Shown here: positions 347 to 33,970 of the stretch, piece by piece
How positions within the stretch are numbered: position 1 is the stretch's first letter
Layout of the letters: each line of letters starts with the position of its first letter
DNA from: an uncultured delta proteobacterium
Lineage (GTDB): Bacteria > Myxococcota_A > Polyangia > Polyangiales > Polyangiaceae
NCBI GenBank assembly: GCA_963841435.1
Contig: CAWJCS010000006.1
Span: 1,664,001-1,728,000 of the forward strand
DNA length: 64,000 nt
Direction of reading: 5' to 3'
Translations under genes and position numbers: made by a program
The notes under the pieces: model-generated
What the model was told of the DNA's origin: nothing
Seen by the model: the letters and a program-made list of their open reading frames with translations, nothing else
The model's database searches: none

Positions 347-406
347 GGGGAGTTCCTCCCGCCAGTATCCCACCCCTCGCAGGCGGGGCCCAGCCGTTCC
401 GAAACC

Positions 407-420
407 TGGAACCGATTCCA
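407..420. promoter_or_regulatory. Palindromic operator TGGAACCGATTCCA (LacI-type)
   Basis: Near-perfect palindrome in the divergent intergenic region upstream of porin-like gene 1. The same motif recurs at 2873, 9643 and 10641. Confidence 0.7.
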
Positions 421-536
421 GTTTCGGGCTTCCGAATTTCGGCACACCCTGCTATGAGTGGCCGCGCGTTGAAACACGCCGGACGCCGAGGGCGTGCTTG
501 CCCCGGGCAATCCGGCTCCGAACCCTCGTAGAGCCC

Positions 537-2522
537 ATGCGTAGGATCCTCTTCTCCGGCCTCTTGCTGCTTCTACCCAACGTTGCCCATGCCCAGGCGC
601 AGGGCCCCGAACCGGCGAAGCCTACCGAACCGGCGACGCCAAGCCCGGCTCCCGCGGAGCCTGCCCCCGCGGCGCCGGCCTCACCGCCTTCGGAAGCGCC
701 ACCTTCCGAGACGGCCGAGCCGGGCCCTGCTCTCGCGACCTCCTCCACCGCCGCCGGCGCCGAGCTCACGGCCGCGGGTCCCACCGCCGCAGCAACGTCC
801 GACGGCGCGGCGACCGCCGAAGCGCCGAAGGACGCTCCGCCACCGCAGGTCGCTCGTCGAGGACAGGAGAGCGAAGACGAAGGCGCCTGGAAGTTCGACT
901 ACCACGGCTACCTCCGCGCCCCGATGCGCCTGGGCATCAACAAGCGGCTGGCCGAGGACACGAACGGCTTCGGTGTCGCCGGCCGCAGCCCGACGACCTT
1001 CCACGAGGCCGTGATCCCCGATGACCAGTATCTGAGCTTTCAGTCCACGGCGCACAACATGCGCACGTGGGCCGAAGGCTTCTTCAGCTTCGGCAACAAC
1101 TGGGCGACGGGCGTGCTCGGCTTCGGCTCGTACAATCTCACCGAGGCGAGCTTCAGCTACACCGAGGCCCAGTGGGGCATCTCGCAGGCGTACGTGCTGC
1201 TCACTCCCGATCTCGGCTACGAGAACGTGCGCATCTGGGCGAAAGCCGGCGCCATCGTGGATCGCTACGGCATGTCGGGTCGCTACGACGCGGGCGAGTA
1301 CGACATGTACATGTTCGGCCGCACGCACGTCATGGGCGAGACGTTTCACGTCGACTACGACATCACGCCCGCCTGGACACTCTATCTCGAGCAAGGCTTC
1401 GGCACGAAAGAGCCGGATCCGAACCCGTACAACAACGCCCACTACACGCTGCTCCATCACGAGCACGTGGGCTTGAAGCAGGGCAAGGACCTCGAGTTCG
1501 GAGCCCACTACCTGATGAGCTGGAGTCAGGAAGAGTTCCGAAATACGGGCGACGCCAATTCCGTTTCTACGGGTGCGAAGGCAGCGCCACGCAACGGCTT
1601 GCCCAATGGCAAACTGTGGGTCACGGGCGTCGAGGCACGCGCCGAGCTGGGCGCGTTCGGCTACATCTACGGCGCCTACTCGCACGTCGGGTCCGACTAC
1701 GCGCTCAACGTCTCGCGGGCCATCGAGGTGCTCCACGCTTCAGGCGGCGGAGAGTTCGAGCTCGGTGTCGCCGCGAACTACCTCGACAGCCCGAACTGCC
1801 TGTCGACGCCACCCTCCGTGGTGCAACCAGTCCCCGCCGGCGCTCCTCAGAACTGGCAGCCGCTCGACATGAACGGCTGCAGCGACGGCAATGGCTCGAT
1901 CAACGCCCTCCACGCCCACTACGAGTTTAGTCTCACGAACTTCCAGCAGCAGTTCTCGGGCGGGCAGCGCTTCTGGGGTCGGGGCTTCGACGCGATCCTC
2001 AAGCTTTACGGCCTTCTGGCGTTCGTCAACAGCGAGTCGCGTGACACGACGAAGGTCTCGCGCAAGAGCGGCATGCTCGCGGATGCGCCCCAGGGTTACA
2101 AGGTGACGAAGTCGAAGTTCGGCGCCGACGTGACCGTCCAGGTGTTCCCGTGGCTCTCGCCCGGCGTGCGCTTCGACCGCGTCGTGCCGAACAGCCACAT
2201 TCCCGAGCAGTCGTTTGCGATCCTGTCGCCGCGGCTCCAGTTCAAGTCGCAGTGGGTGACGCACGAACGCATCACGCTCGGCTACTCGCACTACTTTTAC
2301 GATCAGCGTGTGTGCGACCCGCTCCAGCTCCCCGCCGCCGGCGGCGGCACCATGCCGAACCCCGACCCACTGTCGCAGTACCGCTGCACGCAGCCACCTC
2401 CCTCGCCCGTGCCGTTCGACGGCTTCGGGACCAACACGACTGACCAGGATGGCGAGCGCGCCACGAGCGTCAAGCGTCCCGACGAGAACGTCGTGAAGAT
2501 TGAAGCCACGATGTGGTGGTGA
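537..2522 (+). CDS. Outer-membrane beta-barrel, divergent LamB-like sugar porin (paralog 1)
   Basis: Signal peptide MRRILFSGLLLLLPNVAHA, Pro/Ala linker, WKFDYHGYLRAP motif and C-terminal ATMWW. Start reassigned to ATG 537. Confidence 0.6.
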   Translation: MRRILFSGLLLLLPNVAHAQAQGPEPAKPTEPATPSPAPAEPAPAAPASPPSEAPPSETAEPGPALATSSTAAGAELTAAGPTAAATSDGAATAEAPKDAPPPQVARRGQESEDEGAWKFDYHGYLRAPMRLGINKRLAEDTNGFGVAGRSPTTFHEAVIPDDQYLSFQSTAHNMRTWAEGFFSFGNNWATGVLGFGSYNLTEASFSYTEAQWGISQAYVLLTPDLGYENVRIWAKAGAIVDRYGMSGRYDAGEYDMYMFGRTHVMGETFHVDYDITPAWTLYLEQGFGTKEPDPNPYNNAHYTLLHHEHVGLKQGKDLEFGAHYLMSWSQEEFRNTGDANSVSTGAKAAPRNGLPNGKLWVTGVEARAELGAFGYIYGAYSHVGSDYALNVSRAIEVLHASGGGEFELGVAANYLDSPNCLSTPPSVVQPVPAGAPQNWQPLDMNGCSDGNGSINALHAHYEFSLTNFQQQFSGGQRFWGRGFDAILKLYGLLAFVNSESRDTTKVSRKSGMLADAPQGYKVTKSKFGADVTVQVFPWLSPGVRFDRVVPNSHIPEQSFAILSPRLQFKSQWVTHERITLGYSHYFYDQRVCDPLQLPAAGGGTMPNPDPLSQYRCTQPPPSPVPFDGFGTNTTDQDGERATSVKRPDENVVKIEATMWW

Positions 2523-2872
2523 GCCGGGCGGGGTGCTCCGCTCCGCCGGACCCGCCCCACCTCGCTCCGTTGCTCCCCGTGCGGGGGTCAGCGCCCGCCG
2601 GCGGCCCCTCGTGGTGCCGAGCGGTGCCCCGCCGCGCGGGCCCCGGTTGCCGCCCGCGGGCCTGCCAGCCATCCGCGCACGGAGCGGCCCCGCGGCTCGC
2701 GGCGCCCATCCACTCTCACGCCACGCGAGATGCCTGCGGCCTCGCACCGGTGCCACGGGACGATTCTCGCTGCGAGCCTCCGTCAACCCTGCCGCTGCTG
2801 GCGGGAATCTCCACCGCGCGTAAAATATGCTTCGCGGAGGTTGCCAGTCGGCCTCTTGGGATCTAGTGATCC

Positions 2873-2884
2873 GGAACCGGTTCC
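2873..2884. promoter_or_regulatory. Perfect palindromic operator GGAACCGGTTCC
   Basis: Directly abuts the GH9 ATG at 2885. A TTGCCA (-35-like) hexamer lies at 2841. Confidence 0.75.
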
Positions 2885-4582
2885 ATGTTGCGCCCTTTCC
2901 TTGCCGCGTCCGCCGTCTTGCTCTTCGCCTGTGATACCGCCGACACGCGTTGTCCAACGGGCGTGAACCCCGACGGCTCCTGCAAGATCACCGGCACGAA
3001 CGCCGTCACGATCCGCACGACGACCGTCGGCTTTTTGCCCGACGCCGGCAAGCGAGCAAGCTACGTCGGCGACAACCTCGATTTTCTCGTGGTGCGCTCC
3101 GGCGACAAATCCGTCGCGTTCCAGGGCACGGCGGGGCCCGAGGTCGACGCGAGCGACACGGGCGAGACGCTCCACGTCGCCGACTTCAGCGACCTCACGC
3201 AGCCTGGCTCGTATTTCGTCGCCGTTGACGGCGTAGGGCGCTCGCCGACGTTCACGATCGCAAGCGACGTGTTCGTCGAGCCGTTCCGCGCCGCCATGCT
3301 CGGCTTCTACGGTTTCCGCTGCGGCTCGGCGGTCTCGCTCGAGTGGGAAGGCGTGCACTTCAGCCACGCCGAGTGCCACATGAGCGACGAGGCGCCGGGC
3401 GGCTGGCACGACGCGGGCGACTACGGGAAATACACGGTCAACGGCAGCTTTTCCCTCGCGATGCTGCTCTTCGCCTGGGACCATTTTCAGGAAAAACTCG
3501 AGCCCCTCACGCTCGACATTCCCGAAAGCGACAACGATCTGCCGGATTTTCTGGACGAATGCCGCTATCAGCTCGAGTGGCTGCTCGCCATGCAGGACTC
3601 CGAGACGGGCGGCGTCTACGATCGCGAGACGAACTTCTGCGAGACGTGCACGTCGCGCAACCAACCGTTCGATCCGCTCACGACCATGCCGGAGCAGACG
3701 ACCGGCGATCGCAAGCTTGCGCCCATCAGCACGCCCGCCACGGCGGACTTCGCGGCGGTCGCTGCACACGCCGCCCGCATCTTCGAGCCCTACGATTCCG
3801 ATTTCGCAAAGCGCGCGGAGGACGCCGCCGTCGCGGCGTGGAGCTACCTGCTCGAGAACCCCGAGCCGCAGGCGCCGACGTCGGCGCAATACACGGGCTC
3901 CTACGTGACGACCGATGCCGACGACCGCCTGTGGGCGGCCGCCGAAATCTGGGACACGACCGGAGACACCGAAGCACTAGCGAGCTTCGAGACCGCCTCG
4001 AAGAATCAGTACATCCGCTCCGACTGGGACTGGAGCGACGTGCAAAATCTCGGCATCTACGCGTACCTCGGCTCCGAGCGCGAGGGCCGCGACGAGGAGC
4101 GTCGCTCGCAGCTCGAGACGGCCTTGATCGCGAGCGCGGCGCAAATGGCGACGACCGCCGACACGCACGGCTACGGCCGTGACATCGGCACCGTGTACTA
4201 CTGGGGTATCAACGGCGTGATCGCGCGCACGCTCATGACCTTCGTGCTCGCCGAGCGCCTGTCGGGCGACACGAAGTACCGCATCCCTGCGGGCTACCAG
4301 CTCGATCACCTCTTCGGCCGCAACTACTACGGTCGCTCGTTCGTGACGGGTGTAGGTCAGGGCGCGCCGCAGTCCCCCCACCACCGCCCCTCCATCGCCG
4401 ACGGCGTCACGCCTCCCTGGCCCGGGCTGCTCGTCGGTGGCCCGTCGGACGCGAGCACGCCGCTCACGGCCACGACCTGGAAGGACGACTTCAACGATTT
4501 TCGCAGCAACGAAGTCGCCATCAACTGGAGTGGGGCCCTCGTGTACGCGCTCGCGGCAGTCCTCCCGGAGGCGACCCCGTGA
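2885..4582 (+). CDS. Glycoside hydrolase family 9 endoglucanase, lipoprotein with N-terminal Ig-like domain
   Basis: Lipobox LLFAC, plus the GH9 motifs GGWHDAGDYGKY, PHHR and NEVAINW. Confidence 0.92.
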   Translation: MLRPFLAASAVLLFACDTADTRCPTGVNPDGSCKITGTNAVTIRTTTVGFLPDAGKRASYVGDNLDFLVVRSGDKSVAFQGTAGPEVDASDTGETLHVADFSDLTQPGSYFVAVDGVGRSPTFTIASDVFVEPFRAAMLGFYGFRCGSAVSLEWEGVHFSHAECHMSDEAPGGWHDAGDYGKYTVNGSFSLAMLLFAWDHFQEKLEPLTLDIPESDNDLPDFLDECRYQLEWLLAMQDSETGGVYDRETNFCETCTSRNQPFDPLTTMPEQTTGDRKLAPISTPATADFAAVAAHAARIFEPYDSDFAKRAEDAAVAAWSYLLENPEPQAPTSAQYTGSYVTTDADDRLWAAAEIWDTTGDTEALASFETASKNQYIRSDWDWSDVQNLGIYAYLGSEREGRDEERRSQLETALIASAAQMATTADTHGYGRDIGTVYYWGINGVIARTLMTFVLAERLSGDTKYRIPAGYQLDHLFGRNYYGRSFVTGVGQGAPQSPHHRPSIADGVTPPWPGLLVGGPSDASTPLTATTWKDDFNDFRSNEVAINWSGALVYALAAVLPEATP

Positions 4583-4674
4583 CGCCCTGCGTCGGCACGG
4601 CCGACGGGACGGCCGGGGAGCCGGATATCGCCGATTCTCGGCTGATTTCAGCCGGTCCGAAAGGGAGCTCCAGC

Positions 4675-4703
4675 TTGACGATCCCGGGAGCGCCGCGGAT
4701 ACT
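4675..4703 (+). promoter_or_regulatory. Putative sigma70 promoter TTGACG-N17-GATACT
   Basis: Consensus-like hexamers with a 17-nt spacer about 90 nt upstream of ATG 4794. Confidence 0.5.
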
Positions 4704-4793
4704 TCACGGCGTCGCCGGGCACCGAGCCACGGCTCGGCGCTGCTTGCTTTAACTAGCCCAGAACAGGCTCCCGACCCCTGTGAGGTTTCCCCC

Positions 4794-5690
4794 ATGCAGA
4801 GTGTATTGAAGCAATTCCTCCTTTCGTTCTGCGTCGCAACCCTCTCGGTTGCGGCCGGCTGCTCCAGCGACGCAAGCTCCGACGACGACGCGAGCGCCGG
4901 CACCGGCGGCACCGCCGGCACCAGCGCGACCGGCGACGTGCAAGTCATGCCCGACAGCACCGGTTGGGTCGATCGCGAGGCCGCCTGGAACACCATCGGC
5001 ATCCAGGGCGCCTGGTACCCGTACGGCGATCAATATGGCACCGGCCCGAGCGACGCGAAGTGCATCCACATCGGGATGCACTCGCCCACGGAGTGCTCGA
5101 CGATCACGATGCCCGATCCACTCGCCCTGGCCTTTCCCAACGTGAACGGCGACATGTGCACGGCTGGCGAAACGGCGATCATCCTCGACTGCCCCGCGGG
5201 CCTCAACACCTCGGGCTGCCCCATGGACGACTATTCGAACATGTGGGGCGCCGGCATCGGCCTCGACGTCAACGCCGACAAGGGCGAGGATGGCGGTGCG
5301 AAGAACACCTGGGATCCCGCGGCACAGGGCGTGATCGGCATCTCCTTCGAGATCGACAACGTGCCGCTCCCCGGCCTGCGCGTCGAGATCCCCATGCGGC
5401 TCACGGACACGGAAGCCGCGATGGTCAACCTGCCGCCCGGCTCGATCACCGACGATCATCCCGACGGGGCGCCGTACTGGGGCGCCACGAGCTCGTATCC
5501 CGCATCGCCGGTCGCGATGGGCGTGAACCGCGTGCTCTGGACGGACATCAAGCCCCCGCGCACCAACTACGTCTTCGACAAGGCGCGCATGTTGGGCGTG
5601 CAGTTCCACGTGCCCGCCGTCCCCGGGACGAGCACGTCGCGCGGCGCCTACAGCTTTTGCATCAAGAAGCTCACGTTCCTGAAGCAGTAG
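4794..5690 (+). CDS. Lipoprotein, putative carbohydrate-binding (CBM11/CIA30-like jelly roll)
   Basis: Lipobox VAAGC, Gly/Thr linker, and WGAGIGLD...GISF...GVQFHV motifs shared with the lipoproteins at 9705 and 10771. Confidence 0.55.
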   Translation: MQSVLKQFLLSFCVATLSVAAGCSSDASSDDDASAGTGGTAGTSATGDVQVMPDSTGWVDREAAWNTIGIQGAWYPYGDQYGTGPSDAKCIHIGMHSPTECSTITMPDPLALAFPNVNGDMCTAGETAIILDCPAGLNTSGCPMDDYSNMWGAGIGLDVNADKGEDGGAKNTWDPAAQGVIGISFEIDNVPLPGLRVEIPMRLTDTEAAMVNLPPGSITDDHPDGAPYWGATSSYPASPVAMGVNRVLWTDIKPPRTNYVFDKARMLGVQFHVPAVPGTSTSRGAYSFCIKKLTFLKQ

Positions 5691-5792
5691 GCACGCGACC
5701 CGAAAGCGCCTGGCGTCACCGCCGGGCCAGTCAGCGCGGCGGCTCTACCCCGGGGCCGCCGCGCTGCATTTTGTGCGCTCCTCGGTGCTGGG

Positions 5793-7031
5793 TCAGGGCT
5801 TGGTGTAGTCGAGCAGGTTGCCCGACATCATCAGCATGGTGATGGCGCGAAGTGACTGCTGGTAATACTGATTGTTGCCGCCCGTGCCCGTGGCGCCGTA
5901 GGTGAAGGCGTCGTCGAGGAGCTTCTGCGAGCCAGCGGCCATGCCGGCGACCCCGGCGGGGCCGATGAAAGCCATGTTGCCGAAGGTCGACGTCTTCTGC
6001 CCATCGAGCGAGTAGCCGTCACCGATGTTCGCTACGCCCTGGCTGTCGAAGAAGGGCGCGATCAGGTTCAAATACTCGAGCGCGCGCGGCTCGCCGTTGA
6101 AGCAGTAGTCCATGGCGATGCGCCAGGGCGTGCGGCAGGCGTCGTAGCCGTAGCCGCCCATGTGCTGGTAGGTGGTCGTCGTGCTGTCGGGCACGAGGCC
6201 GTAGGTGCCGCTTACGTCCTTGAGAATGGCGTAGTTGCGATCGATGATCGTCGTGCGCCAGGTGCTGTTCCCCGTGACATCGGCAAAGACGCGGAAATAG
6301 GCGGGCGAAAAATAATCCGGGAACGTGCGGTTGCTCCCTTTGCCCCAGTTGTCACCCGGCACGAGCAAGCCGTCAGGGCCGATCTCGTAGGTGTACATGG
6401 CGTTGATGATCTTCTTGGCGTCGTCGAGGTACGTGCCCGACTGCCACTGCGCCGACGCCATGATGAGCGACCACGCCATGTCCTCGTCGGCGTCCGTCGC
6501 CGAGCCCGTGCCATCGCTGGCGATCGATCCGTCGGCGTTCAGGTGCCAGTTCATGAGGCCGAAGCCGTCGAGGTGGGCCTTGGCGAAGGCCCAGACTCCG
6601 TCGAACGTCGGGCGGTCGTTCATGTACACGGCGAGCAGCATGCCGTAGGCGATGCCCTCGGAGACGGTATCGCCGTTGTTCGTGAGCCTGGACACGCGCA
6701 GCGCCGCGCCCGCTGGGACGACGAACTGCCCCTTCCAATAGGTGTACGCCGAGGCGACGGCGGCCGAAGCATTGGCCACGCTCGTGATCCGACACGCGCC
6801 CGGGACCTCGTTCTGCGGAAACGGGTGCGGCCCGCCAGGGATGGGCATGGTCGTCGTCCCCGCGGCGCCGCTCGAGCCCGACGAGCCAGCGCTGCCGCCC
6901 GTCCCGCCGCTGCCGACCGTTCCGGCGCTGGAGCCCCCGCTCGAATCGTCGTCGTCCCCGTGGTGGGTCGGGGCGCTGCAGGCGGAGGCCGCGAGGACAA
7001 GGAGCGAGCAGAGGGTCCCGAACGTTCTCAA
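5793..7031 (-). CDS. Glycoside hydrolase family 8 lipoprotein (endoglucanase-like)
   Basis: TVSEGIAYGML, SATDADED and YDACRTPWR motifs. TTG start follows an AAGGAG RBS. Lipobox AASAC. Confidence 0.9.
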   Translation of the reverse strand: MRTFGTLCSLLVLAASACSAPTHHGDDDDSSGGSSAGTVGSGGTGGSAGSSGSSGAAGTTTMPIPGGPHPFPQNEVPGACRITSVANASAAVASAYTYWKGQFVVPAGAALRVSRLTNNGDTVSEGIAYGMLLAVYMNDRPTFDGVWAFAKAHLDGFGLMNWHLNADGSIASDGTGSATDADEDMAWSLIMASAQWQSGTYLDDAKKIINAMYTYEIGPDGLLVPGDNWGKGSNRTFPDYFSPAYFRVFADVTGNSTWRTTIIDRNYAILKDVSGTYGLVPDSTTTTYQHMGGYGYDACRTPWRIAMDYCFNGEPRALEYLNLIAPFFDSQGVANIGDGYSLDGQKTSTFGNMAFIGPAGVAGMAAGSQKLLDDAFTYGATGTGGNNQYYQQSLRAITMLMMSGNLLDYTKP

Positions 7032-7197
7032 AGCGAAGTCTCCTTTGACGAAGGTCTCCAAGCGTAGCGCGCGAGTGCCACCACGACCACCCGCCCAGTC
7101 AGCCTCTCGGCCACGTCGCGCGCCGATTGTCACGCGAGGGTCACGACCTCGAGCGGTGCGATCGACTGGTGCTCGAACACTCTCGTCGCGCGGGCGC

Positions 7198-9627
7198 TCA
7201 GGCCTCGCACTCGACCTCGACCGTGCTCCCCGCGGGAGCATACGGCACGAGGTGACCGACGACGGGCTTGCCGTCAACCTTGAGCGCGACCTTGCCGCCG
7301 CGACCCTGGTTCTTGACGCGGATCTTGTAGGTGGCGCCACGGCAGCGCCGCTCGATGGAAAACTCGGCGAGGTCCTTGCCGATGACGGGCTTGACCGACA
7401 GGCCGTCCCACTCTGGCTTCACCCCGAGCAGGTACTGAGAGATGGCAACGAAGTTCCAGGCGGCCGTGCCCGTGAGCCAGGAGTTTTTCGCCTCGCCGTG
7501 GCGCACGGCGTCGCGCCCGGCGATCATCTGCGAGTAAACGTACGGCTCGGTCCGATGGACCTCGCTGATCTCCTCGAGGTATGCGGGCGCGATCTTCTTG
7601 TAGTAGTCGAACGCCTGGTCGCCCCGGCCGATCATCGTCTCCGCGATGATGACCCAGGGGTTGTTGTGGCAGAAAATGCCGGCGTTCTCCTTGTAGCCGG
7701 GCGGGTAGCTCGAGATCTCGCCGAGCTCGAGGTGGTACGTCTGGTAGGCGGGCTGCTGGAGCACGATGCCGTACTTCGTGTCGAGGCGCGCCTTGACCGA
7801 ATCGAGCGCCTTCTCGACGTGCCCGCTCTCGAGCCCGATGCCCGCCATCGAGCAGAAGCCCTGCGGCTCGATGAAGATCTGCCCCTCGGCGCACTCCTTG
7901 CTGCCGACCTTGTTGCCGAAAAAGTCGTACGCCCGCAGGTACCAGTCGCCATCCCAACCGTGAGAAAGCACCGTCTCGCTCATCTTGGCGATGAGCTCCT
8001 TGGCGCGCTTCGCCTCGTCGGTGAGACCGCGCCGTTCGGCGAGCGCCACGTACTCGGGGCCGATGTGCACGAACATGCCGGCGATGAACACCGACTCGGC
8101 CGTGCGGCCCTTCTTGTTCTCGGTGGTCTGATACGGCTCGTCGGGCGTCTCCGAAAAGCAGTTCAGGTTCAAGCAGTCGTTCCAGTCCGCGCGCCCGATG
8201 AGGGGCAGGCCATGCGGGCCGAGGTTCTCCGTGACGTGATAAAATGAGCGCTTGAGGTGCTCGAAGAGCGACGCCTGGTTGTTCTCGTCGTTGTCGAACG
8301 GAACCTGTTCGTCGAGGATCGCGAAGTCACCCGTTTCCTTCACGTAGGCGGCGACGCCGAGGATGAGCCACAGCGGGTCGTCGTTGAAGCCGCTGCCCGC
8401 CTCGTGGTTGCCGCGCTTGGTGAGCGGCTGGTATTGGTGGTACGCGCTGCCGTCGGGAAACTGCGTCGACGCGATGTCGATGATGCGCTCGCGAGCGCGC
8501 TCCGGCACGAGGTGCACGAAGCCCAAAAGGTCCTGGTTCGAGTCGCGAAAGCCCATGCCGCGGCCGATGCCCGACTCGAAGTACGAGGCGCTGCGCGACA
8601 TGTTGAACGTCACCATGCACTGGTACGGGTTCCAGACGTTCACCATGCGGTTGAGCTTGTCGTCGCTCGAGGTCAGCTTGTAGCTCGAGAGCAGGCTGCC
8701 CCAGCGCTCCTTGAGCTTCGCGAACGCCGCGTCGACTTTCTCGGGCGTCGCGAACACCGCCATCAGCGCCTTGGCGCGCTGCTTGTTGATGACGCCGGGC
8801 TTCTCCCACTTGTCGTCCTTCGGGTTCTCGACGTAGCCGAGCAAGAACACGAACGTCTTCGACTCGCCGGGCGCGAGCGTCACGTCGAGCGAGTGCGAAG
8901 CGATCGGCGACCAGCCGCTCGCGACCGAGTTCTTCGACTTTCCCGCCAGCACGACGTCCGGCTCGTGAAAGCCGTTGTAGAGGCCGAGGAACGATTCACG
9001 ATCGGTGTCGAAGCCGAGGATCGGCTGATTCACGTGATAAAACGCGAAGTGATTACGGCGCTCCCTGTACTCGTGCTTGTGGTACACGGTGCTGCCGTCG
9101 ATCTCGACCTCGGCGGTGTTGAGGTTGCGCTGGAAGTTGGTCTGATCGTCCTGCGCGTTCCAGAGGCAGAACTCCAGGAACGAGAACAGCGTGACGCGCC
9201 GCGGGGTGCTGCCTTCGTTCTTGAGCGTGACGCGCTCGACCTCGCAGTCGTGATCGACGGGCACGAACGCGAGCAGCTCCACCGACAGGGCCTTCCGCTT
9301 GCCCGTGATGCGCGTGTAGCCGAGGCCGTGCCGGCACTCGAAGGAATCGAGGGCCGTCTTCGTGGGCGAAAACGTCGGGTTCCACAGCTCGCCGTCGGCT
9401 TCCCGCACGTAGAACATCCGACCGCCCATGTCGGTCGGCACGTTGTTGTAGCGGAAGCGGAGCAGACGCCGGAGGCGCGCGTCGCGATAGAAGCAATAGC
9501 CGCCGCCCTGGTGCGAAATCAGCCCGAAGAAGCGATCCGACCCGAGGTAGTTGATCCAGGGGTAAGGCGTCTTCGGAGTGGTGATGACGTACTCTTTGGC
9601 CGCGTCATCGAAATGACCAAATCGCAT
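7198..9627 (-). CDS. GH94 cellobiose/cellodextrin phosphorylase
   Basis: 809 aa with [38 protein letters not shown] and WLTGTAAW. Confidence 0.93.
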
Positions 9628-9642
9628 GGGTTTCCTTCAACC

Positions 9643-9654
9643 GGCACCCGTTCC
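9643..9654. promoter_or_regulatory. Degenerate operator GGCACCCGTTCC
   Basis: Two mismatches to GGAACCGGTTCC, about 15 nt upstream of the GH94 start. Confidence 0.5.
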
Positions 9655-9704
9655 GCCGGTTCTCTCGCTCGGGGGGTGTGCCCGCTCGCGCCGATCTCCG
9701 CCGG

Positions 9705-10442
9705 CTACTGGCACCCGGTGAACTGAATGTCGTCCACCCAGATGTCGAAGTCGGCACCCTTCACGTTGACCTGCCACTGGATGCCGTAGAGCTTCGTCGG
9801 GTCGATGCCCGAGTCCTTCGGGCCCCAGTCTTCCTGGTTCATCGACGTGAACGGGATCGTGTACTGAACCCAGTCATTCGTAAACTCGAAGGTCATGCCG
9901 TGGTCGTTGAAGCACTGGTGGCAGATGCCGCCGTCGGGGTCGGTCTGCACGTCGGGCACCTTCATGCGCACCGTGCCGATGGATCCGGGGCCCTTTTTGG
10001 CCCAGAACGAGATGCCCTTGTACTTCGAGGCGTCGTAGGTGCCCTTCGGGTCGACGAAGTTCAAGCCCATGCCGGCATAGACGATGTCGGCGCCGCCGAC
10101 CTTGCCCTTCATGCGCGCTGCGTTGGCCGAGCCATTCGCGCCGCCAGGGCTCATCTCGAATGTGCCGCCGAGCGCACCGGAGAGCGGCCAGATGTCCGAG
10201 CCGCCGTTGTCCTTGGTGTCGAGGAACGTGTACCAGTAGCCGCCGCGCCCTTCGACGAAGTTGGTCTTGTTGGCCGACTCACCGTCGGAGATCATCGCCG
10301 TTTCCTTGGGGCAAGGGCGCCCCTCGGGCAGCTCGCGAGTGGAGGCGGCCGCGGGGTCCACCCTCTTCTTGCAAGCGCCCGTCGTCAGCGAAAGCGCGCA
10401 CAGGCCGCCGAGCACGGTTACCCAAACAATCGATCGAAGCAT
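9705..10442 (-). CDS. CBM11/CIA30-like carbohydrate-binding lipoprotein
   Basis: Signal peptide ending TTGAC, with YAGMGLNF, YDASKYKGISFWAK and FDIWVDDIQF. Confidence 0.75.
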   Translation of the reverse strand: MLRSIVWVTVLGGLCALSLTTGACKKRVDPAAASTRELPEGRPCPKETAMISDGESANKTNFVEGRGGYWYTFLDTKDNGGSDIWPLSGALGGTFEMSPGGANGSANAARMKGKVGGADIVYAGMGLNFVDPKGTYDASKYKGISFWAKKGPGSIGTVRMKVPDVQTDPDGGICHQCFNDHGMTFEFTNDWVQYTIPFTSMNQEDWGPKDSGIDPTKLYGIQWQVNVKGADFDIWVDDIQFTGCQ

Positions 10443-10624
10443 TTTCTCACCTTGGGGTTTTCGGGAAGGTCCGCGTGGGCTATGGCCGGTTCGGGCTCGT
10501 TTGATCGGCCGCGTTCCAGCCGTCCGTTCGCACCGGCGCGCCCGGGGGGTCCCACCCGCTCCACGCGCCGATCGGCGCTCTGGGCGTGCAGGCGGGCGGC
10601 ATGTTGCGACCCAAGCCGGAGCTC

Positions 10625-10653
10625 TGTCAATCGGGAATGCGGAACCGGTCCCA
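10625..10653 (-). promoter_or_regulatory. -35 TTGACA with adjacent operator (GGAACCGGTCCC at 10641-10652)
   Basis: tgtcaa at 10625-10630 reads TTGACA on the - strand. A one-mismatch palindrome sits between the divergent CBM-lipoprotein genes. Confidence 0.65.
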
Positions 10654-10770
10654 GGTTGCGGCCGGGGCCCGGGGCAAGGGCGGTCGGCGGGGCGGCTGGG
10701 CCGACCCGCCACGGCGCCGGGGGCTGGCGCGGTTTGGGGGTGCGGCTAGACTCGGGCGCTGAGGCTCAGC

Positions 10771-11793
10771 ATGACTTATCGCTCCCTTCTTTCGGGCTGG
10801 ACCCCCACCCTCACCGTGGTTTCTGGCCTGCTTTACGTCGGCTGCGGCGCAGCCCCCGTGAACACGGGTGACGACGATGCGGCTTCCGGCGCAACCGGAG
10901 GCGCAGGTGGCGTCGGCAATGGTGGGGCCTCGGCCGTCGGGGGGAGCGGCGTGGGCGGCGCAACGGGCGGTGTGGGCGGCGCAACGGGCGGCGCGGGTGG
11001 TGCGACGGGCGGCGTCGGATCGGGTGGCACGGCAGGTGTCATCACGGCTGGCGTCACCAGCAGCTCCGGCGGGACGGTCGCGGCTTCGCTCTGTGGCCAG
11101 CCCACGGGCGTCGCCACCGAGAAGCTCATCGACGATCTGGAAGACGGGGACAACACCGTGGGCAACGGCCTCGGCGACCCGGTGCCCCCTTCGCGCGTCG
11201 GCTACTGGTTCACGTACAACTCGAACGACTCGAGCTGCACGCCGCTCAGCATGGGTGGCAATTGCCCTTGCAAGCAGAGCCCGCCCCCCGACCCCCAGGG
11301 CCTCATCCCCTTCCCCCCGGCGGCGAATCCCGGCAACGGCAGCATGTTCGCCGCGCACACCTCGGGCAGCGCCTGCACGACGTGGGGCGCGGGCCTCGGC
11401 GTCGATTTCAACAATTGCAACACGAAGAGCAACCCGTACAACGTGAGCGCCTACTCGGGCATCGGCTTCTCCTACAAGAGCAACCAGCCCCTGCGCGTGC
11501 TCGTCGGGACTCAGCCGAACCTGCCGACCTCGGAGGGCGGCTCGTGCGGCGGCACCGATTGCTACAACCACCACGGCAAGAACTTCGCGGCGGCGAGCGC
11601 CTGGACGACGGTCACCATCTCGTGGGCCGAGCTCCAGGGCACACAGCAGATCGGCAGCCCGCCCGCGGACCCGCAGACCTACGGCGAAAAGCGTGCGTTC
11701 GACCCGACGAAGGTGCTCAATCTCGAGTTCCAGGTGGACGCGAGCGGCGGCCAGAACTTCGACTTCTGGGTCGATGACGTGACGTTCCTCTGA
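10771..11793 (+). CDS. CBM11/CIA30-like lipoprotein with Gly-rich linker
   Basis: Lipobox YVGC, GGATGG repeats, WGAGLGVDF, YNVSAYSGIGF and FDFWVDDVTF. Confidence 0.7.
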   Translation: MTYRSLLSGWTPTLTVVSGLLYVGCGAAPVNTGDDDAASGATGGAGGVGNGGASAVGGSGVGGATGGVGGATGGAGGATGGVGSGGTAGVITAGVTSSSGGTVAASLCGQPTGVATEKLIDDLEDGDNTVGNGLGDPVPPSRVGYWFTYNSNDSSCTPLSMGGNCPCKQSPPPDPQGLIPFPPAANPGNGSMFAAHTSGSACTTWGAGLGVDFNNCNTKSNPYNVSAYSGIGFSYKSNQPLRVLVGTQPNLPTSEGGSCGGTDCYNHHGKNFAAASAWTTVTISWAELQGTQQIGSPPADPQTYGEKRAFDPTKVLNLEFQVDASGGQNFDFWVDDVTFL

Positions 11794-11826
11794 GCGACGG
11801 CGCGAGAGCCGCCGCCAACCGCGGCG

Positions 11827-12789
11827 TCAGAAGCCGTAGGCGCCGCCAACCGCGAGCGCGAAGCCGATGGCCGTCGCGGGAACCATCGCGAGCACGCGTA
11901 GCTCGCCCGTGATCATCACATTGCCGATGCCGTAGCCGACGCCGCCGCCCGGCGCGACGAACGCCGTGCCCGTCTTGCGCCAGGCGTGCAGCGTCCCCGA
12001 CTGGTGGTCGTCGGCGTGCTGCTTGTCCTTGTAGAACTGGACGGCCACGAGTCCGTCCACCTCACCGAGCCCCAAGCCGAGTGAGGCGAACGGTCGGAGC
12101 CCGGGGTGCGCGAACGGCGCAGCGCCGAAGAAATAGGCTCCGCGAAGCTCCACGTGGAGCGGCAAGGATGCGCCCACGCCCTCCACGGTCGGCGCCTCGC
12201 GAAACGCGTACCCGACGCGCGCGCCGGCCAGCAGCCGGCCGATGAAGAGCCGGTCGTAGCCAACGAGCACCCGCGTCGTCGTGAGCCCGAAGCCGCCCGA
12301 GACCACGTTGCCGGCGCCGGAATAGACGCGGTCCGAGTACAGGCCCTTGTCGTCACGGCAGGTGTACTGCGTCGCGCCGGGGGACTTCTTGCCGTTCTCG
12401 TCGATCGAGGGGCAGACGCCCGGCGTGGACGGGAAAATCAGCGAATCCTGCTGAACGCTCAGGCTCACCCAGTTGAGCTTCGACGGGCCACGCGAACGTG
12501 CCTCGTCATCGGACTCGGAGATGGGCTTTTCCGCCGGCTCTTCCTCCTCGAGCTCGATGACCTCGATCTTCTGCCCCTTGGTGTTGGTCGTGGTCATGAC
12601 GATGTCGTCGGAATCGTGCTCCACGGCAGCGGGCTTGGACTCCTTCGACTTCTTCTTCTTGGTCTTGGCGTTGTGCTGCGAGCTCTGGGCGACAGACTTC
12701 GCGGGGGCGGTCGCCGGCCAGCCGAGAGCCGCGAAGAGCAGGCACGCCGCGCCTTTGCTGCGGGCGGATCGCCAAGGGAAGCGGGCCAT
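11827..12789 (-). CDS. Exported hypothetical protein, probable small outer-membrane beta-barrel
   Basis: Signal-like N-terminus, alternating Gly/aromatic beta-strands and C-terminal Phe. Confidence 0.5.
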   Translation of the reverse strand: MARFPWRSARSKGAACLLFAALGWPATAPAKSVAQSSQHNAKTKKKKSKESKPAAVEHDSDDIVMTTTNTKGQKIEVIELEEEEPAEKPISESDDEARSRGPSKLNWVSLSVQQDSLIFPSTPGVCPSIDENGKKSPGATQYTCRDDKGLYSDRVYSGAGNVVSGGFGLTTTRVLVGYDRLFIGRLLAGARVGYAFREAPTVEGVGASLPLHVELRGAYFFGAAPFAHPGLRPFASLGLGLGEVDGLVAVQFYKDKQHADDHQSGTLHAWRKTGTAFVAPGGGVGYGIGNVMITGELRVLAMVPATAIGFALAVGGAYGF

Positions 12790-12893
12790 GGAAAGTCGGG
12801 GGACCATAGCAACGGCTCGCCACGGCCTGCAATCGGGCTCGGGCTCCGATTTTCGGCGCAAGAACTCCTGATTTGAGTCGGGCGACCTTGCAG

Positions 12894-14071
12894 CTAGGTG
12901 TGCTCGTTCGCGCCGGCACATGCCGCGGTAGCGAAAACTTCCACGGATCGGCCGAAGGCGTCTCGCAGCCGTGCGCGCCAGGCGTCGCCGAGCGTGTCGA
13001 TGGCTCGCCCCGCGGCGAGCGCGATCGCGCAGCCACCGAAGCCCCCGCCCGTCATGCGGGCGCCGTACACGCCGGGGATCTCGAGCGCGACCTCGACGGC
13101 GAGGTCGAGCTCGGCGAGCTCACTTCGTAGTCGTCGCGCAACGACGCGTGCGAGGCGCCCATGAGGCTGCCGAGCCGGTCGAGCTCCCCGTGTTCGAGGA
13201 GCTCTGCCGCCATGAGCGTACGCCCGTTCTCGCTGACGACGTGGCGCGCGCGGCGTAGCAGCGTGTCCGGCAGCTCGTGGGCGTAGCGTTCGAAATCAGC
13301 GAGTGAAACGTCGCGCAGCGAGCGCACGCCGGGGATCTTCTTCGCGAAGTGCGCAGCCGCGCGCTCGCACTCTGCGCGGCGCTCGTTGTACGCCGACGTC
13401 GCGAGATCGTGCTTGACCTTGGTGTCGCAGACGACGATGCGCGCGCCGCCGAGGTCGAGTGACACCACGCGCGGCTCGAGCGAGCGGCAGTCGATGAGCA
13501 GCGCGCCCCCGGCGACGCCGAGGGATGCGATTGCCTGATCCATGATGCCGCAGCGCGTGCCCACGTACTCGTGCTCGGCCGCCTGCCCCGCGAGCGCGAG
13601 CGTCATGCGATCGATGGTCTCGTGCCCCGCGAGCGACGCGAGCGCGAGCCCGACGGCGATCTCGAGCGCCGCCGAGGCCGAGAGACCCGCGCCCGGCGGT
13701 ACCTCACTGTCGATGAGCAGGCTCGCGCCACGCACGGGCACACCGCGCGCGATGAGCGCCCTCGCCGTTCCCTCGACGTAGTCGCCCCACGTGCCACGCC
13801 GTGGCACGCCTGGGTCGGCGAGCGTGAATTCGAACGGCTCGGGCTGGCCCGTCGAGACAGCGACGACCCGACCGTCGTCGCGCGGCGCCGCAGCGACACG
13901 CGTGCGCCGATCGATCGCCATGGGCAGCACGAAGCCGTCGTTGTAGTCGGTGTGCTCGCCGATCAGGTTCACGCGCCCGGGCGCGGAGAAGAGCCGCGCC
14001 GACCCGCCGAAACGGCGAGTGAAGGCTTCCGCGAGGCCGGTCAGGGTCGTCACGCGCTCGGCGTCGAGCAT
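12894..14071 (-). CDS. galK: Galactokinase with a 1-nt frameshift near 13116 (probably a sequencing error)
   Basis: [30 protein letters not shown] and CGIMDQ. The [11 protein letters not shown] motif continues in the next frame to a stop at 12894. Confidence 0.88.
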
Positions 14072-14090
14072 GCCACGCCCGAAGCCCGGG

Positions 14091-15624
14091 TTACCACCAG
14101 AGGCTCGCCGTGAGCGCCAGCATGCTCTTGTCCGGGGCGATGGTCGGGTCGTCGTGCGGGGGGTAGCCGCCGCGCACGACCGTGCGGCTGCCGTAGACGA
14201 ACCGCGTGTACTGGAGCGCGACCTGATCGTGCGCGTTCCATCCCGATCGGAACAGCAGACGCGGCGAGATCTCGAAGAAGGCCGTGTCCGAGTCGTTGAA
14301 CGTCGGGCCAAACCTGATCGGCACGCGCCGAAACGCCGAACCAGGGCAGGATGGCGTAGCTTGCCTCGGCGCCGAGCTTGCGCTTGGTCACGCCGTCGTA
14401 AAGCGCCCGACCCGTTGCAGGGTCAACGGATTTGTCGTGGCTCGAGACGTGGGTCTGCATGCCGAACAGGCTGACGACGATGTCGGGGCCCTCACCCACG
14501 AAGTAGGGACCGTAGAGCAGCCTCGAGATGCTGAGATCGTACTGCGCTCCCAGCGTGAAAAGAGAGCCCGTGGCGGCGCTCTTCGGCCCGAAATACTGGT
14601 CCATGAGCCCGACGCCGCTGTCGACGTTCAGGACCTCGATGATGCGGCCGAGCGAGCGCGCGTAGTCGGCGCCGTGGTGCACGGCGCCGAAGTAGAAATG
14701 CCCGAAGCGGCTCAGCGTGAGCCCCAGATCGGCGCCCAGGATGGTGACGCGCCCGTCGGGTTGGTCGTTCTGGCTCGCGCGGTCGTCCTGCGTAAACGCC
14801 GACAGGTAGTGCAAGCCGAGCACGCCCATGCCGCCGTAGCCGATGCCGACGTGCTCACCGAACACCCAGCCCGCGCCGGTGCGCGAATCGGCAAAGTCGT
14901 TCGAATAGTCGGGGGTGATGCCGTTCCATGGCTTGTCGGCCTGCCCCTGGATCTCCTGCGCAAGCAACAGGGAAAAGTCGCCGAAGGAGAAGCCGGCGTT
15001 GACGGCCTCGCCGATGCCGTTCGTGCGCACGATGATGGGCGTCGCGTAGCGTCCCTCGTCCCACTCTCCCATGCTGCCGTAGCGCTGGGAAAACGCGCCA
15101 ATCGTCACGGAAAACCGAGCATTCTTCAGGAGGTCGGAGAGCTCGAAGTCGAGGTACGCGTCCTCGATGCCGGGGTTCTTCGGCGGATCGAAGAACGACG
15201 CGGCCGTGCGCGGCTGGCGCGAAACGACGGAGATGTTGCCCGTGACGATGGGGTTGCCGTACGTGAAGCGCAAATCGACGTAGGGCTGAGGAACCGTGCC
15301 CGTGTAGTTGAAGCTGTCGGTGTAGTCGGGAACGACGGGCGGAGCGTGCAACGTCGACTTCTGCTGCTTGGCCGCGACCGTGGTGCGCTCGCCGAAGCCG
15401 GCGCGGAGCGGCATCATCATCATGCCGTGGAAGTCGAAGCGCCAATCGCTCTCGTCCTTCGCCGCGTGATGGTACGCGGGGGCAATGCCGCCGGGCACCG
15501 GGCCCGCTTGCGGGGCGCTCGGGGAAAGCCCCAAGACGGGCGGCGACGCGCTCTCCTCGGCCAAAGCCGGCAGCGCGAGGCTCACCGAACAGCCGAGAAT
15601 GGCGAATTTGAGGCCAGCGTTCAT
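14091..15624 (-). CDS. Outer-membrane beta-barrel, LamB-like paralog 2 (frameshifted near 14290-14330)
   Basis: Signal peptide and WRFDFHG...PLRAG. The C-terminus ISPRLLFRSGW...ASLWW lies in the adjacent frame and aligns by eye with paralog 1. Confidence 0.6.
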
Positions 15625-15662
15625 GAGGAACCTCTTTTTTCGTTCGCGGCACACATCGTTTC

Positions 15663-17537
15663 TCACCACCACATCCCGAAGCCTGCGCTCACGACGTCGC
15701 TGTCGAGCTTCTCGACGGGCGGGGCGTTGAAGCTCACGGGTGGCTCCGAGCCGTAAATCCACTTGTTGTACTGCAGCGACACGGTCTCGCGGCTGCTCCA
15801 CGTGGTCCGAAAGACCGCCCGCGTCATGAGCGCCGTGTAGGCCTTGTTCGGGCGGTCGAGCTCGGGGCTCACCCGGTCGGCGCGGAACTCCGCCGCGAAC
15901 CAGGGGAACAGACTCGCGAAGACATTGAAGCCCGCGCGAACCATCGACCAACCGTTGCGCAGCGGGTCGTGGCTCTTGATGCGGCCGTACTGCACGCCGA
16001 GCGCCGTGGTGACGTTTCGGCCTTCGCCCCAGAACGGGTCGGGCGAGCGCCAGAGCGTGCCCCAGCTGAGCTCGGTCTCGGCGGAGGCACTCCACATGCT
16101 GCCCGCCCAGTTGTTGTCACTATCGAACGAGCGCGGGCCGATCCAGGTATTGGAGAACGTCTCGCCGTCGCCGACGTACGAGATGGCGAGGCCGTGCAGC
16201 GCGTAGGCGTTCTTGGCGCGGCCGTACAGGACGCCCGCACCGCCTTGGTACCAGTTGCCTTTGAAGCCGAACGTCGCGCCGTAGGCGTCGTAGCGGCCGT
16301 CGTTGCGACGGCGACTCTCGTCGATGCCCGGTGTTTCCGGGCGCGGATCGGGGTTGTAGTTGCTGCGGCTCTGACCCTCGAGCGGCGGCTCGGCGGGCGG
16401 CAGGTAGCCGCGCTCGTCGTGGCTGAAGTTGTTCAGCCAGTGAAGCTGCGCGCGGAGCGACACATCGCCGTTGCGGATGAGCCCGAGGTGCGCGTGGTGA
16501 ATCCATGCTGCCGGGTCGTACGAATCGCCGAAGTTGTTCGGCGCGACCGTGTCGCCTTGCGGCGAATCCTCGGGCAATATCGGGTGGTTCTGCCCGCCCG
16601 GCGCCTTGTCGCCGCTCGAGTGAACGCCATGGTCGAGCGTCACGACCCACGTGTCGGAGATTGCGTACTCGGCCGACGTCGTCTCGCCGACACCGGCGAC
16701 TCTACCGACGGCGTTGCTGTAGAAGCCGCCGCCGTAGTTGCCGAGGTTGCCGTACGTCACGCTGAACGCGCCGAACGAGAACCCAAGCCGCAGTTTTCCG
16801 ATCTGTGGCAAGCGCGCCGTGATGAAGGCCGAATCGATGAAGTTCTGGCTGCCGAGCTGGAAGAACGAAGCGCCGCGCGTCGGGTTCCAGGTCGTGAGGT
16901 TCATGTGAGCGGTAACGTTGCGGTTGCCGTACTCGAACTTCATCTCGACCCAGCTGCCCTGCGCCCCGCCCGCGCTGAAGCTGCCGCCGGTGTCCACCGT
17001 GTTGCGGAAAATCAGGTCGGACTGGCGCGGCGCCAGCGCGACGTGCGAAAGCTCGCGCGAACGGATCGAGCCGCGCACGCCGGCGGCGAAGAAGCCGGTG
17101 TAATTGAACGTCCAGACGTCGCGCGGCGCCGGCGCGCCGTACGGCACCGTGAGCCCACCCGCGACGGGGCCCGAATGCGGCGCGTAGGAGGGCAGGCCAA
17201 GCGCGGGGTAGCGCCGGTAGCCGGGGACGTAGCCTGGACGGTCGAGCTCGTCGGGAGGCAAAGCGGGCGGGGCCGAGGCGGCAGCGGCGGCTGGCGGTGG
17301 CGCTGCTTCGGGCGGAGCGGGGGGTGATGCCGCAGCGGCGGCGACGGGCGGCGAAGCCGCGGCAGCATCGGCGGAGGCGGGCGCCGCATCGTTGGGTGAC
17401 GCGGGCGCAGCCGCAGGCGCTTCGGCTCCCGGCGGCGTCGGCTGGGGCGCGCCAGGCTCGGCTGCCGCACCCGGAGACGGCGCAGTCGGAGCCGGCGCGG
17501 GTGTCGCGGGCGCGGGGGCTTGCGCGGCGACAGGCAC
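15663..17537 (-). CDS. Outer-membrane beta-barrel, LamB-like paralog 3 (true start probably near 17628)
   Basis: Pro/Ala linker, WTFNYTGF, PWF...RADRV.P and C-terminal GMWW. A hydrophobic signal segment lies in frame just upstream of 17537. Confidence 0.6.
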   Translation of the reverse strand: MPVAAQAPAPATPAPAPTAPSPGAAAEPGAPQPTPPGAEAPAAAPASPNDAAPASADAAAASPPVAAAAASPPAPPEAAPPPAAAAASAPPALPPDELDRPGYVPGYRRYPALGLPSYAPHSGPVAGGLTVPYGAPAPRDVWTFNYTGFFAAGVRGSIRSRELSHVALAPRQSDLIFRNTVDTGGSFSAGGAQGSWVEMKFEYGNRNVTAHMNLTTWNPTRGASFFQLGSQNFIDSAFITARLPQIGKLRLGFSFGAFSVTYGNLGNYGGGFYSNAVGRVAGVGETTSAEYAISDTWVVTLDHGVHSSGDKAPGGQNHPILPEDSPQGDTVAPNNFGDSYDPAAWIHHAHLGLIRNGDVSLRAQLHWLNNFSHDERGYLPPAEPPLEGQSRSNYNPDPRPETPGIDESRRRNDGRYDAYGATFGFKGNWYQGGAGVLYGRAKNAYALHGLAISYVGDGETFSNTWIGPRSFDSDNNWAGSMWSASAETELSWGTLWRSPDPFWGEGRNVTTALGVQYGRIKSHDPLRNGWSMVRAGFNVFASLFPWFAAEFRADRVSPELDRPNKAYTALMTRAVFRTTWSSRETVSLQYNKWIYGSEPPVSFNAPPVEKLDSDVVSAGFGMWW

Positions 17538-30359: not shown

Positions 30360-33970
<3,611 letters not shown>

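Follow-up and report, generated by a model that had tools for sequence, protein, structure and literature searches.

The sugar porins, the phosphate-type porins and the SusC/SusD loci are the described systems closest to the genes considered here. In LamB, the maltoporin, residues Y6, Y41, W74, F227, W358 and W420 form a greasy slide. The solved chains of ScrY start at residue 71 (range 71-483), the unsolved part being an N-terminal periplasmic extension, a coiled coil. OprP and OprO are barrels of 16 strands. In the Bacteroidota, SusC/SusD loci carry two adjacent, co-inherited outer-membrane transport genes that have been copied into many hydrolase-bearing loci. The cellulolytic myxobacteria, Sorangium and Polyangium among them, are major soil degraders of plant polymers; how do the breakdown products cross the outer membrane? 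In the full-text literature, in which most subscription journals are outside coverage, we found nothing on this passage. The subject of this work is a family of predicted outer-membrane barrels represented by three genes, OMP1, OMP2 and OMP3, in a stretch of 64,000 nucleotides from an uncultured member of the Polyangiaceae (G000:C6:1664001-1728000). This whole stretch is called the window below; it has a G+C content of about 67% and comes from a genome of 7.78 Mb in 6 contigs.

We propose that the three genes belong to a divergent family of LamB-shaped porins, probably for oligosaccharide uptake, and that fragments of plant sugars probably pass into the cell through these barrels. Stated in full, the proposal is that barrels of LamB/ScrY architecture act as passive, TonB-independent oligosaccharide channels, and that an obligate pair of them has been duplicated and retargeted across glycan loci, a reading that we favor with moderate confidence. 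Two things are new here: the barrels form an obligate pair whose members diversify together, and this pair is found systematically in the glycan-degrading loci of the Polyangia.

We begin with the relationship among the three genes. OMP1 (537..2522, + strand) encodes a signal peptide, a Pro/Ala-rich stretch of about 90 residues and a barrel domain at residues 110-661, and belongs to an unpaired clade. OMP2 (14091..15624, - strand) is the downstream member of a tandem pair and has a signal peptide and barrel, no long extension, and one frame change at about 14299-14306. The upstream member, OMP3 (15663..17537, - strand), has a Pro/Ala-rich N-terminal stretch before its barrel, and its true start is probably upstream of 17537: read from the GTG at 17537 the protein has no signal peptide, and a signal-peptide-like stretch lies farther upstream in frame, with no ATG, GTG or TTG preceding it. 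A preliminary description of this DNA had taken the three for colinear paralogs, and translation and pairwise BLASTP confirm it, with 23% identity between OMP1 and OMP3 (E 1e-15), 25% between OMP1 and OMP2 (E 3e-33) and 27% between OMP2 and OMP3 (E 5e-29). By their sequences the three are true paralogs, with a similarity far above chance.

The details of that description fared unevenly. The motifs [FY]GN, PW.....R.D.V.P and R..F...W occur in all three proteins, and W-x-F-[DN]-[YF]-[HT]-G takes the forms WKFDYHG, WRFDFHG and WTFNYTG. The GA/YG motif is likewise common to all three, as GA....YG..G.[YW]..G.Y, with a spacer of four residues where three had been written. In E. coli LamB (NC_000913.3), VDFHGYARSG does follow the leader, and the last residues are indeed MEIWW. 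The claim that all three proteins end in WW holds for OMP2 only when its frameshift is read through, the WW end lying in another frame. Pro/Ala-rich N-terminal extensions are present in OMP1, where residues 20-110 are 53% proline plus alanine (P+A), and in OMP3, where the first 100 residues are 71% P+A; OMP2 was wrongly included, since only some 38 residues separate its signal peptide from the barrel.

How widespread is the family, and does it have a name? The genome holds 12 copies, organized as five tandem pairs and two unpaired genes, the latter being OMP1 and a copy on contig C3 that is 75-80% identical to it. A word-indexed search yielded 401 relatives among 8000 scored candidates, the named sources being nearly always a 'hypothetical protein' of Polyangiaceae, Polyangia or Myxococcales. 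At cut-offs of E<=1e-3, E<=1e-10 and E<=1e-30, a profile of ten paralog barrel domains (A1) matched 868, 653 and 315 cluster representatives, respectively, among 1.84 billion. Matches were found in 10 of 201 genomes sampled across the phylum, this one included; of the 15 others that belong to its GTDB family, only one has a match, and the distribution is therefore patchy. These searches describe a predicted outer-membrane beta-barrel family that is unannotated and found almost only in the Polyangia (Myxococcota). Pfam and NCBIfam scans of OMP1-3 returned a single row, GltJ, at E 0.67 and on the low-complexity stretch, and a literature search that leaves most subscription journals outside its coverage found no paper on the family. 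In the ESM Atlas, OMP1 adjoins Myxococcota clusters automatically named 'Porin family protein' that have no Pfam family. One OMP1-type relative (P0070) bears the precomputed label PF27998.1 and has no match in the Pfam copy searched, which omits PF27998; a newer Pfam release may thus already model the family.

The tandem arrangement of OMP2 and OMP3 turns out to be the rule. With a closer, OMP2-type alignment (A5) we fetched 80 loci from GTDB species genomes, namely metagenome-assembled genomes (MAGs) of Polyangia together with Polyangium fumosum DSM 14668, P. jinanense SDU13, both of which carry pairs, and one Sorangium MAG, and searched their six-frame open reading frames (ORFs) with the A1 profile. 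A second family gene lies directly upstream on the same strand in 77 of the 80, and the other three have only 287-602 bp of upstream sequence. Among the genes measured (59 upstream, 55 downstream) the two barrel domains are separated by a median of 165 nucleotides, so that the downstream protein has space for a signal peptide alone; the upstream proteins have a median of 105 residues before the barrel, 38% of them P+A.

The pairs also show a pattern in their phylogeny. A quick IQ-TREE phylogeny of 77 rows was built from every second of 61 complete pairs, 10 paralogs of this genome and seven OMP1-type proteins; the remaining 31 complete pairs are not in it, nor are the 19 loci in which the pair is incomplete. 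Upstream genes and downstream genes fall into separate clades, each with a Shimodaira-Hasegawa-like approximate likelihood-ratio (SH-aLRT) support of 93, and many sub-groups of loci recur in both, so that the two clades branch in parallel. The OMP1 clade has an SH-aLRT of 100, and one pair of this genome, C3B, is a separate duplication close to it. The window's pair is sister to that of locus L100, which is syntenic with the window for the pair, GalK, two genes of a family that we call unk287, and GH94. A fixed pair that branches in parallel argues that the two barrels are mutually dependent, and perhaps the pair proteins work together, a mixed oligomer being the obvious model. Strict conservation and parallel branching, as sequence-based patterns, fit co-function and do not demonstrate binding. 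The preliminary description had offered heterotrimers or different oligosaccharide specificities for the tandem pair; the latter idea fits better between pairs, each of which has different enzymes beside it, than within one pair.

What shape would these proteins have? AlphaFold2 models were made of the OMP1 domain (110-661) and of the last 524 residues of OMP3, with a 111-sequence alignment for each. The OMP1 model has a predicted local distance difference test (pLDDT) value of 91.9, a predicted TM score (pTM) of 0.92 and 18 long strands; that of OMP3 has a pLDDT of 84.7, a pTM of 0.87 and again 18 long strands. In Foldseek, maltoporin and ScrY rank at the top (1mpr at E 1.6e-8, TM 0.49 query-normalized and 0.61 target-normalized). 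VIA-align gives the same order. For OMP1 the leading structures are LamB 8xcj_A (Z 23.1, 355 residues, 3.5 A), 1mpr (Z 22.6), ScrY (Z 21.5) and 1mal (Z 20.5), with OmpT next at Z 18.0 and Occ and OmpF at about Z 16-17; for OMP3 they are LamB (Z 26.4), ScrY (Z 26.3 and 24.7), 1mpr (Z 25.4) and 1mal (Z 22.4), followed by OccK1 at Z 21.0 and AlgE at Z 18-19. The check suggested in advance, a comparison of predicted folds with LamB and ScrY, thus returned 18-strand barrels with LamB and ScrY as the best solved matches. OprP and OprO are absent among the best 50 VIA-align matches of either model. Membership in the OprD/Occ group is not indicated, there being no Pfam match, with the Occ structures (Z 16-21) under LamB and ScrY.

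The alignment runs from the first strand to the last residue, with OMP1 model residues 11..552 on LamB 1..421; F11 of the OMP1 domain faces V1 of LamB, and the alignment closes at the last Trp of both. If the ends are ungapped, OMP1 has F-D-Y-H-G-Y-L-R opposite V-D-F-H-G-Y-A-R in LamB and the two WW ends coincide, G15 and Y16 of the family face G5 and Y6 of LamB, and the penultimate Trp faces W420. In the 111-sequence alignment the first of these positions is G in 107, the second Y or F in 99, and the penultimate position W in 77. One published account of LamB (PMC3509688) counts Y6 and W420 among the residues of the greasy slide, six in all. On these models the family likely has conserved counterparts of both. 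The most conserved block of the family (G129, Y135, G136, G144 and Y146) lies in and around the loop after strand 5, which we infer to occupy the position of the porin constriction loop L3. The predicted architecture is like that of LamB and ScrY, with 18 strands, both termini periplasmic and long outer loops. The Pro/Ala-rich tail of the upstream partner would be periplasmic, since it precedes a first strand that, like that of LamB, begins on the periplasmic side.

The genes beside the barrels point to carbohydrate. Directly downstream of OMP1 is a glycoside hydrolase family 9 (GH9) cellulase gene with CelD_N (2885..4582, + strand; Pfam Glyco_hydro_9 E 3.6e-75, CelD_N E 3.7e-13), and beyond it a predicted lipoprotein of 298 residues (4794..5690, + strand), judged by eye from a Cys after a hydrophobic leader and with no Pfam match at E<=1. 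A GH8 endoglucanase-like gene (5793..7340, - strand; Pfam Glyco_hydro_8 E 1.1e-50) and an intact 809-residue GH94 gene of the cellobiose/cellodextrin phosphorylase type (7198..9627, - strand; Pfam Glyco_hydro_94 E 6.6e-172) follow. Next come two unk287 copies found by tblastn, both predicted lipoproteins: copy A (9705..10442, - strand, 245 residues) is 60% identical to the L100 copy and has no Pfam match, and copy B (10771..11793, + strand, 340 residues) has a Gly-rich linker. An ORF of about 320-326 residues (11827-12807, - strand) with a signal-peptide-like start, the end ...GGAYGF and no Pfam match may be a small outer-membrane barrel. The galactokinase gene GalK (12900..14092, - strand; Pfam GalKase_gal_bdg and GHMP_kinases_N), with a frame change at about 13121-13169, adjoins OMP2. 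Upstream of OMP3 are remnants of a second family, unk480 (17674..18910, - strand, in frames -1, -2, -3, -1, -2), recognized by tblastn with three intact homologs, and then a gene for a MalK-type ATPase of a sugar ATP-binding cassette (ABC) transporter (19469..20617, + strand; Pfam ABC_tran, OB_MalK and TOBE_2). A PFK gene is also in the neighborhood. With cellulases, a cellobiose phosphorylase and a MalK-like ATPase in the locus, a sugar-channel role is therefore reasonable.

The other loci of this genome, in which 55 ORFs were scanned, extend the pattern. The C5 pair adjoins GH10, GH3 and GH67, the C3A pair two GH5 genes and a CE2, and the C2 pair GH2, GH44, NPCBM and AraC; 5-8 kb from the C3B pair lie genes for a pectate lyase, KduI and a major facilitator superfamily (MFS) protein. 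The same scan found no glycan-enzyme neighbor for the unpaired C3 gene. Among the 80 related loci, 685 called ORFs were clustered; outside the family, 63 clusters occur in two or more loci, and one representative of each was scanned. The commonest are unk287 (48 loci), unk480 (33), GH44 (19), MalK (17) and an enolase-superfamily cluster (14), followed by an ABC permease (11), GH30 (10), GH3 (9) and, in 6 loci each, GH67, GalK and a substrate-binding protein (SBP). TonB-dependent receptor genes make up one neighbor cluster only, present in 2 of the 80 loci.

The commonest pair neighbors, unk287 and unk480, are without a Pfam match and probably lipoproteins. An intact unk480 copy (L020:5915-8225) has a weak lead in the ESM Atlas to CBM30 and surface-glycan-binding-protein-B-like clusters, with a score of 0.89. 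Might the barrels then serve chiefly as something other than solute channels, either as outer-membrane platforms that keep the neighboring lipoproteins or glycoside hydrolases at the cell surface or as polysaccharide export pores like AlgE? That two lipoprotein-like families are kept beside the pairs at such frequency, one of them with the surface-glycan-binding lead, would fit a platform, and the 18-stranded AlgE does match the OMP3 model, at Z 18-19. The loci, however, are catabolic, their genes being those of breakdown and import (hydrolases, phosphorylases, kinases, importers); among the neighbor clusters in at least 2 loci there is none for a glycosyltransferase or for polysaccharide export; LamB and ScrY outscore AlgE; and a platform role could coexist with a channel role. 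We regard a mainly non-channel function as improbable, the least probable of the alternatives considered here.

How would a channel work in such a locus? In the uptake route that we envisage, surface or secreted glycoside hydrolases encoded beside the barrels would release oligosaccharides outside the cell, and these would diffuse passively, independently of TonB, across the outer membrane via the LamB-shaped channels. A MalK-type ABC system would import the sugars, which would then be cleaved by phosphorylases such as GH94 or phosphorylated by kinases. The gene for the OMP3-type protein, with its extension, and that for the OMP2-type protein, without one, make up an obligate two-gene unit that was duplicated whole and retargeted to loci for different glycans. 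OMP1 represents a separate, unpaired clade, here in an operon-like unit with the GH9 cellulase.

The neighborhood counts favor the proposal, within limits. A hydrolase-type cluster gene is present in 47 of the 80 loci, and that or a sugar transport/metabolism gene in 63; the former figure is descriptive only, because the clusters were drawn from the same flanks and the scan leaves out 160 singleton ORFs. In the 51 loci that have six or more flanking genes, 34 have a hydrolase-type gene and 46 a gene of either class. The sole independent control is the comparison within this genome, where homologs of the hydrolase clusters occur in 6.7% of 20,000 random 17.4-kb windows versus four of the seven family loci, and it is based on those seven loci. 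Several results weigh against the proposal that these are LamB-shaped sugar channels. On the structural side, beta-barrel porins at large reach Z 16-21, and the margin of LamB and ScrY is just 1.4-5.4 Z units. A sequence-profile search of the PDB gave 0 matches at E<=10. The LamB hidden Markov model (HMM), PF02264, misses OMP1-3 both in hmmscan at E<=1 and in a genome search at E<=10. The sole match of that genome search is elsewhere, at C6:756822-758069 (E 2.7e-88); this canonical LamB-family gene encodes an N-terminal extension of PDEAK-like repeats and the C-terminus AEAWW. A canonical porin of the LamB family is therefore already present in this organism, and that gene, together with the HMM miss, leads us to reject OMP1-3 as ordinary LamB orthologs.

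Profile-profile comparisons belong on the same side of the balance, in part. With hhalign, one of the 111-sequence family alignments (A2) matches an 18-sequence LamB alignment (A4) at 91.5% (E 8.6e-7, 99 C-terminal columns) and the other (A3) at 93.3%; in global mode the A2 match is 98.1% across 450 columns, with hGY.R opposite sGY.R. Controls with reversed sequences gave 0.7% (A2 versus reversed A4) and 0.3% (reversed A2 versus A4). Adding BglH to A4 gave 88.6%, and comparison of A2 with OmpF plus OmpC of E. coli gave 2.2-2.7%, the match being confined to signal peptides, and with E. coli ChiP 0.2%. The match is not robust, other alignments of the family scoring far lower: the ten-paralog A1 scores 0.56% against A4, the upstream-clade alignment (A6) 19.9% and the downstream-clade alignment (A7) 1.2%, and A2 against E. 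coli LamB alone scores 0.2%. Moreover, a control of 18 myxobacterial OprO/P-like sequences, matched in depth and lineage, reached 90.7% with A2 (E 1.3e-6, 139 N-terminal columns; 70.8% in global mode). The control having scored equally, we do not take the LamB score from hhalign to prove a specific relationship; a LamB-specific homology, as opposed to one with porins generally, is therefore not shown by the sequences. The profiles place the family within the porin superfamily and do not single out LamB.

Are the barrels then general or ion-selective diffusion porins, such as anion or phosphate porins like OprO/OprP, with carbohydrate neighbors that are incidental or reflect co-regulation only? 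The N-terminal third resembles the OprO/P-like profile as strongly as the C-terminal part resembles LamB, the nearest ESM Atlas neighbors are 'Porin family protein', BBP2 and Porin_O_P clusters, and general porins reach Z 16-18 versus the models. Yet the models have 18 strands versus 16 for OprP and OmpF, OprP and OprO do not appear among the best 50 structural matches, and the OprO/OprP HMM, PF07396, has no match in OMP1-3. The link with glycoside hydrolases, sugar ABC genes and sugar kinases repeats in many loci and genomes, and a housekeeping porin would have no need of the distinct enzyme set that accompanies each pair. We think a general porin unlikely, if only a shade less so than the platform or export role. 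We retain the term LamB-like because of strand number, structural ranking and end motifs. The divergent LamB-like family of the preliminary description thus stands as an architecture, in the 18-strand models, and is unproven as a specific homology, given the HMM miss and the equal control.

The window's own copy of the pair raises a different question. The interval 14091-15624 is 1534 nucleotides, 1 mod 3, and translation from 15624 runs on into unrelated residues once past ...ARADQVWP. Another frame encodes the conserved C-terminus, ...SPRLLFRSGW...TASLWW*; the preliminary description overlooked this frameshift. Comparison with the intact L100 ortholog reduces this to a single frame change at about 14299-14306, beside a CCC run, with 64% identity to the L100 downstream gene over residues 8-468 and then 59% over 466-536 in the next frame. 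GalK likewise has its C-terminal part in another frame and matches the intact L100 GalK in two tblastn pieces. In total there are at least 7 frame disruptions between about 13.1 and 18.9 kb: one in galK, one in OMP2, probably one at the 5' end of OMP3, and at least four in the gene upstream of OMP3. To the points already listed against the proposal we must add that this copy of the pair may be non-functional, given several disruptions, and that among public runs no RNA run contains the stretch.

Is the region, comprising the pair, galK and the gene upstream of OMP3, a decaying, non-functional locus in which the frame changes are real mutations? The disruptions number at least seven, the long genes checked at 0.3-13 kb are intact, and the four other pairs in the genome could make this one dispensable. 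We lean towards assembly error instead, because past each break the shifted frame keeps the conserved residues to the natural stop, at 59-69% identity to the L100 orthologs; because the break in OMP2 is a single base at a CCC run; because family genes in other MAG loci are split likewise; and because the same window holds a gross anomaly at 30.4-34.0 kb. A paralog elsewhere is similarly without its signal-peptide part, and no public run contains the stretch from which real mutations might be read, the only runs being three metagenomes, each with 0.05 of the window's words. Decay of the locus is accordingly something that we doubt, while giving it more weight than either of the two functional alternatives.

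The sequences concerned deserve description in their own right. In MAG loci L068, L086 and L091, family genes are split into 2-4 frame pieces. The paralog just mentioned, of OMP2 type (C3:1158858-1160369, - strand), has an open frame starting TVPKKKK... with no preceding start codon or signal peptide, and may be another frame break. At window positions 30400-33970 some 3.5 kb are almost free of C on the + strand, with a GC content of 0-0.43 and a GC skew of 0.73-1.0, and its center is taken up, at 30929-31473, by 191 consecutive T and then 354 consecutive A. A second, milder patch that is low in GC and G-skewed lies at 27400-28600. The C-poor stretch resembles an artefact of assembly or base calling, or else DNA in which C has been converted to T.

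What would it mean if these are sugar channels? The family is a concrete candidate for outer-membrane sugar entry, found again and again across loci, confidently predicted to fold like LamB and missing from the copies of Pfam and NCBIfam that were searched. It follows an unusual genetic rule, in that two diverged barrels are always passed on as a unit. Should the two assemble into a mixed channel, the result would be a sugar porin of hetero-oligomeric type with two genes dedicated to it; we know of no described example. One can go further and imagine a TonB-independent polysaccharide utilization locus specific to the Polyangia, its core a hetero-oligomer of two anciently diverged LamB-shaped barrels, one of them Pro/Ala-tethered, with unk287 and unk480 as glycan-binding lipoproteins and with the whole cassette copied and adapted to one glycan after another: cellulose, xylan, xyloglucan or mannan, and pectin. 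We put this forward tentatively, as a good deal less probable than the channel proposal itself. If true, it would be a passive-porin counterpart of SusC/SusD. The pairs could also serve as markers for finding and classifying glycan-utilization loci in Myxococcota genomes and soil metagenomes.

How, finally, does the family compare with the known systems? To LamB (PF02264; 1mal, 1mpr, 8xcj) it is alike in the predicted 18-strand barrel, with Z 20.5-26.4 over 345-370 aligned residues, in a first strand of the form F-D-[YF]-H-G-Y-x-R resembling V-D-F-H-G-Y-A-R, in the C-terminal WW, and in having a MalK-type ATPase gene nearby, as lamB does. It differs in showing 8-13% identity and no match to the LamB HMM, in a barrel domain larger by 100-130 residues with long loops after strands 1, 9, 11 and 17, and in its neighbors, which are enzymes for beta-glucan, xylan and other plant glycans and not the mal regulon; moreover, most members belong to a fixed pair of two diverged genes, whereas LamB is encoded by one. 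ScrY (1a0t, 1oh2) is likewise an 18-strand sugar porin (Z 21.5 for OMP1, 24.7-26.3 for OMP3), and its periplasmic extension parallels those of OMP1 and OMP3, which in contrast to a coiled coil are Pro/Ala-rich and of low complexity (53-71% P+A), with no detectable sequence similarity to ScrY. The likeness to OprO/OprP (PF07396) is in the first 150 or so barrel residues, and both lie in the wider porin superfamily; the models of the family differ in their 18 strands, and its gene neighborhood is carbohydrate-related. With SusC/SusD the family pair shares the organization of a two-gene unit that has its own hydrolase set at each locus, together with candidate glycan-binding lipoproteins. Here, however, there is neither a TonB-dependent transporter nor a SusD fold; both genes of the pair encode porin-like barrels, and uptake would be passive.

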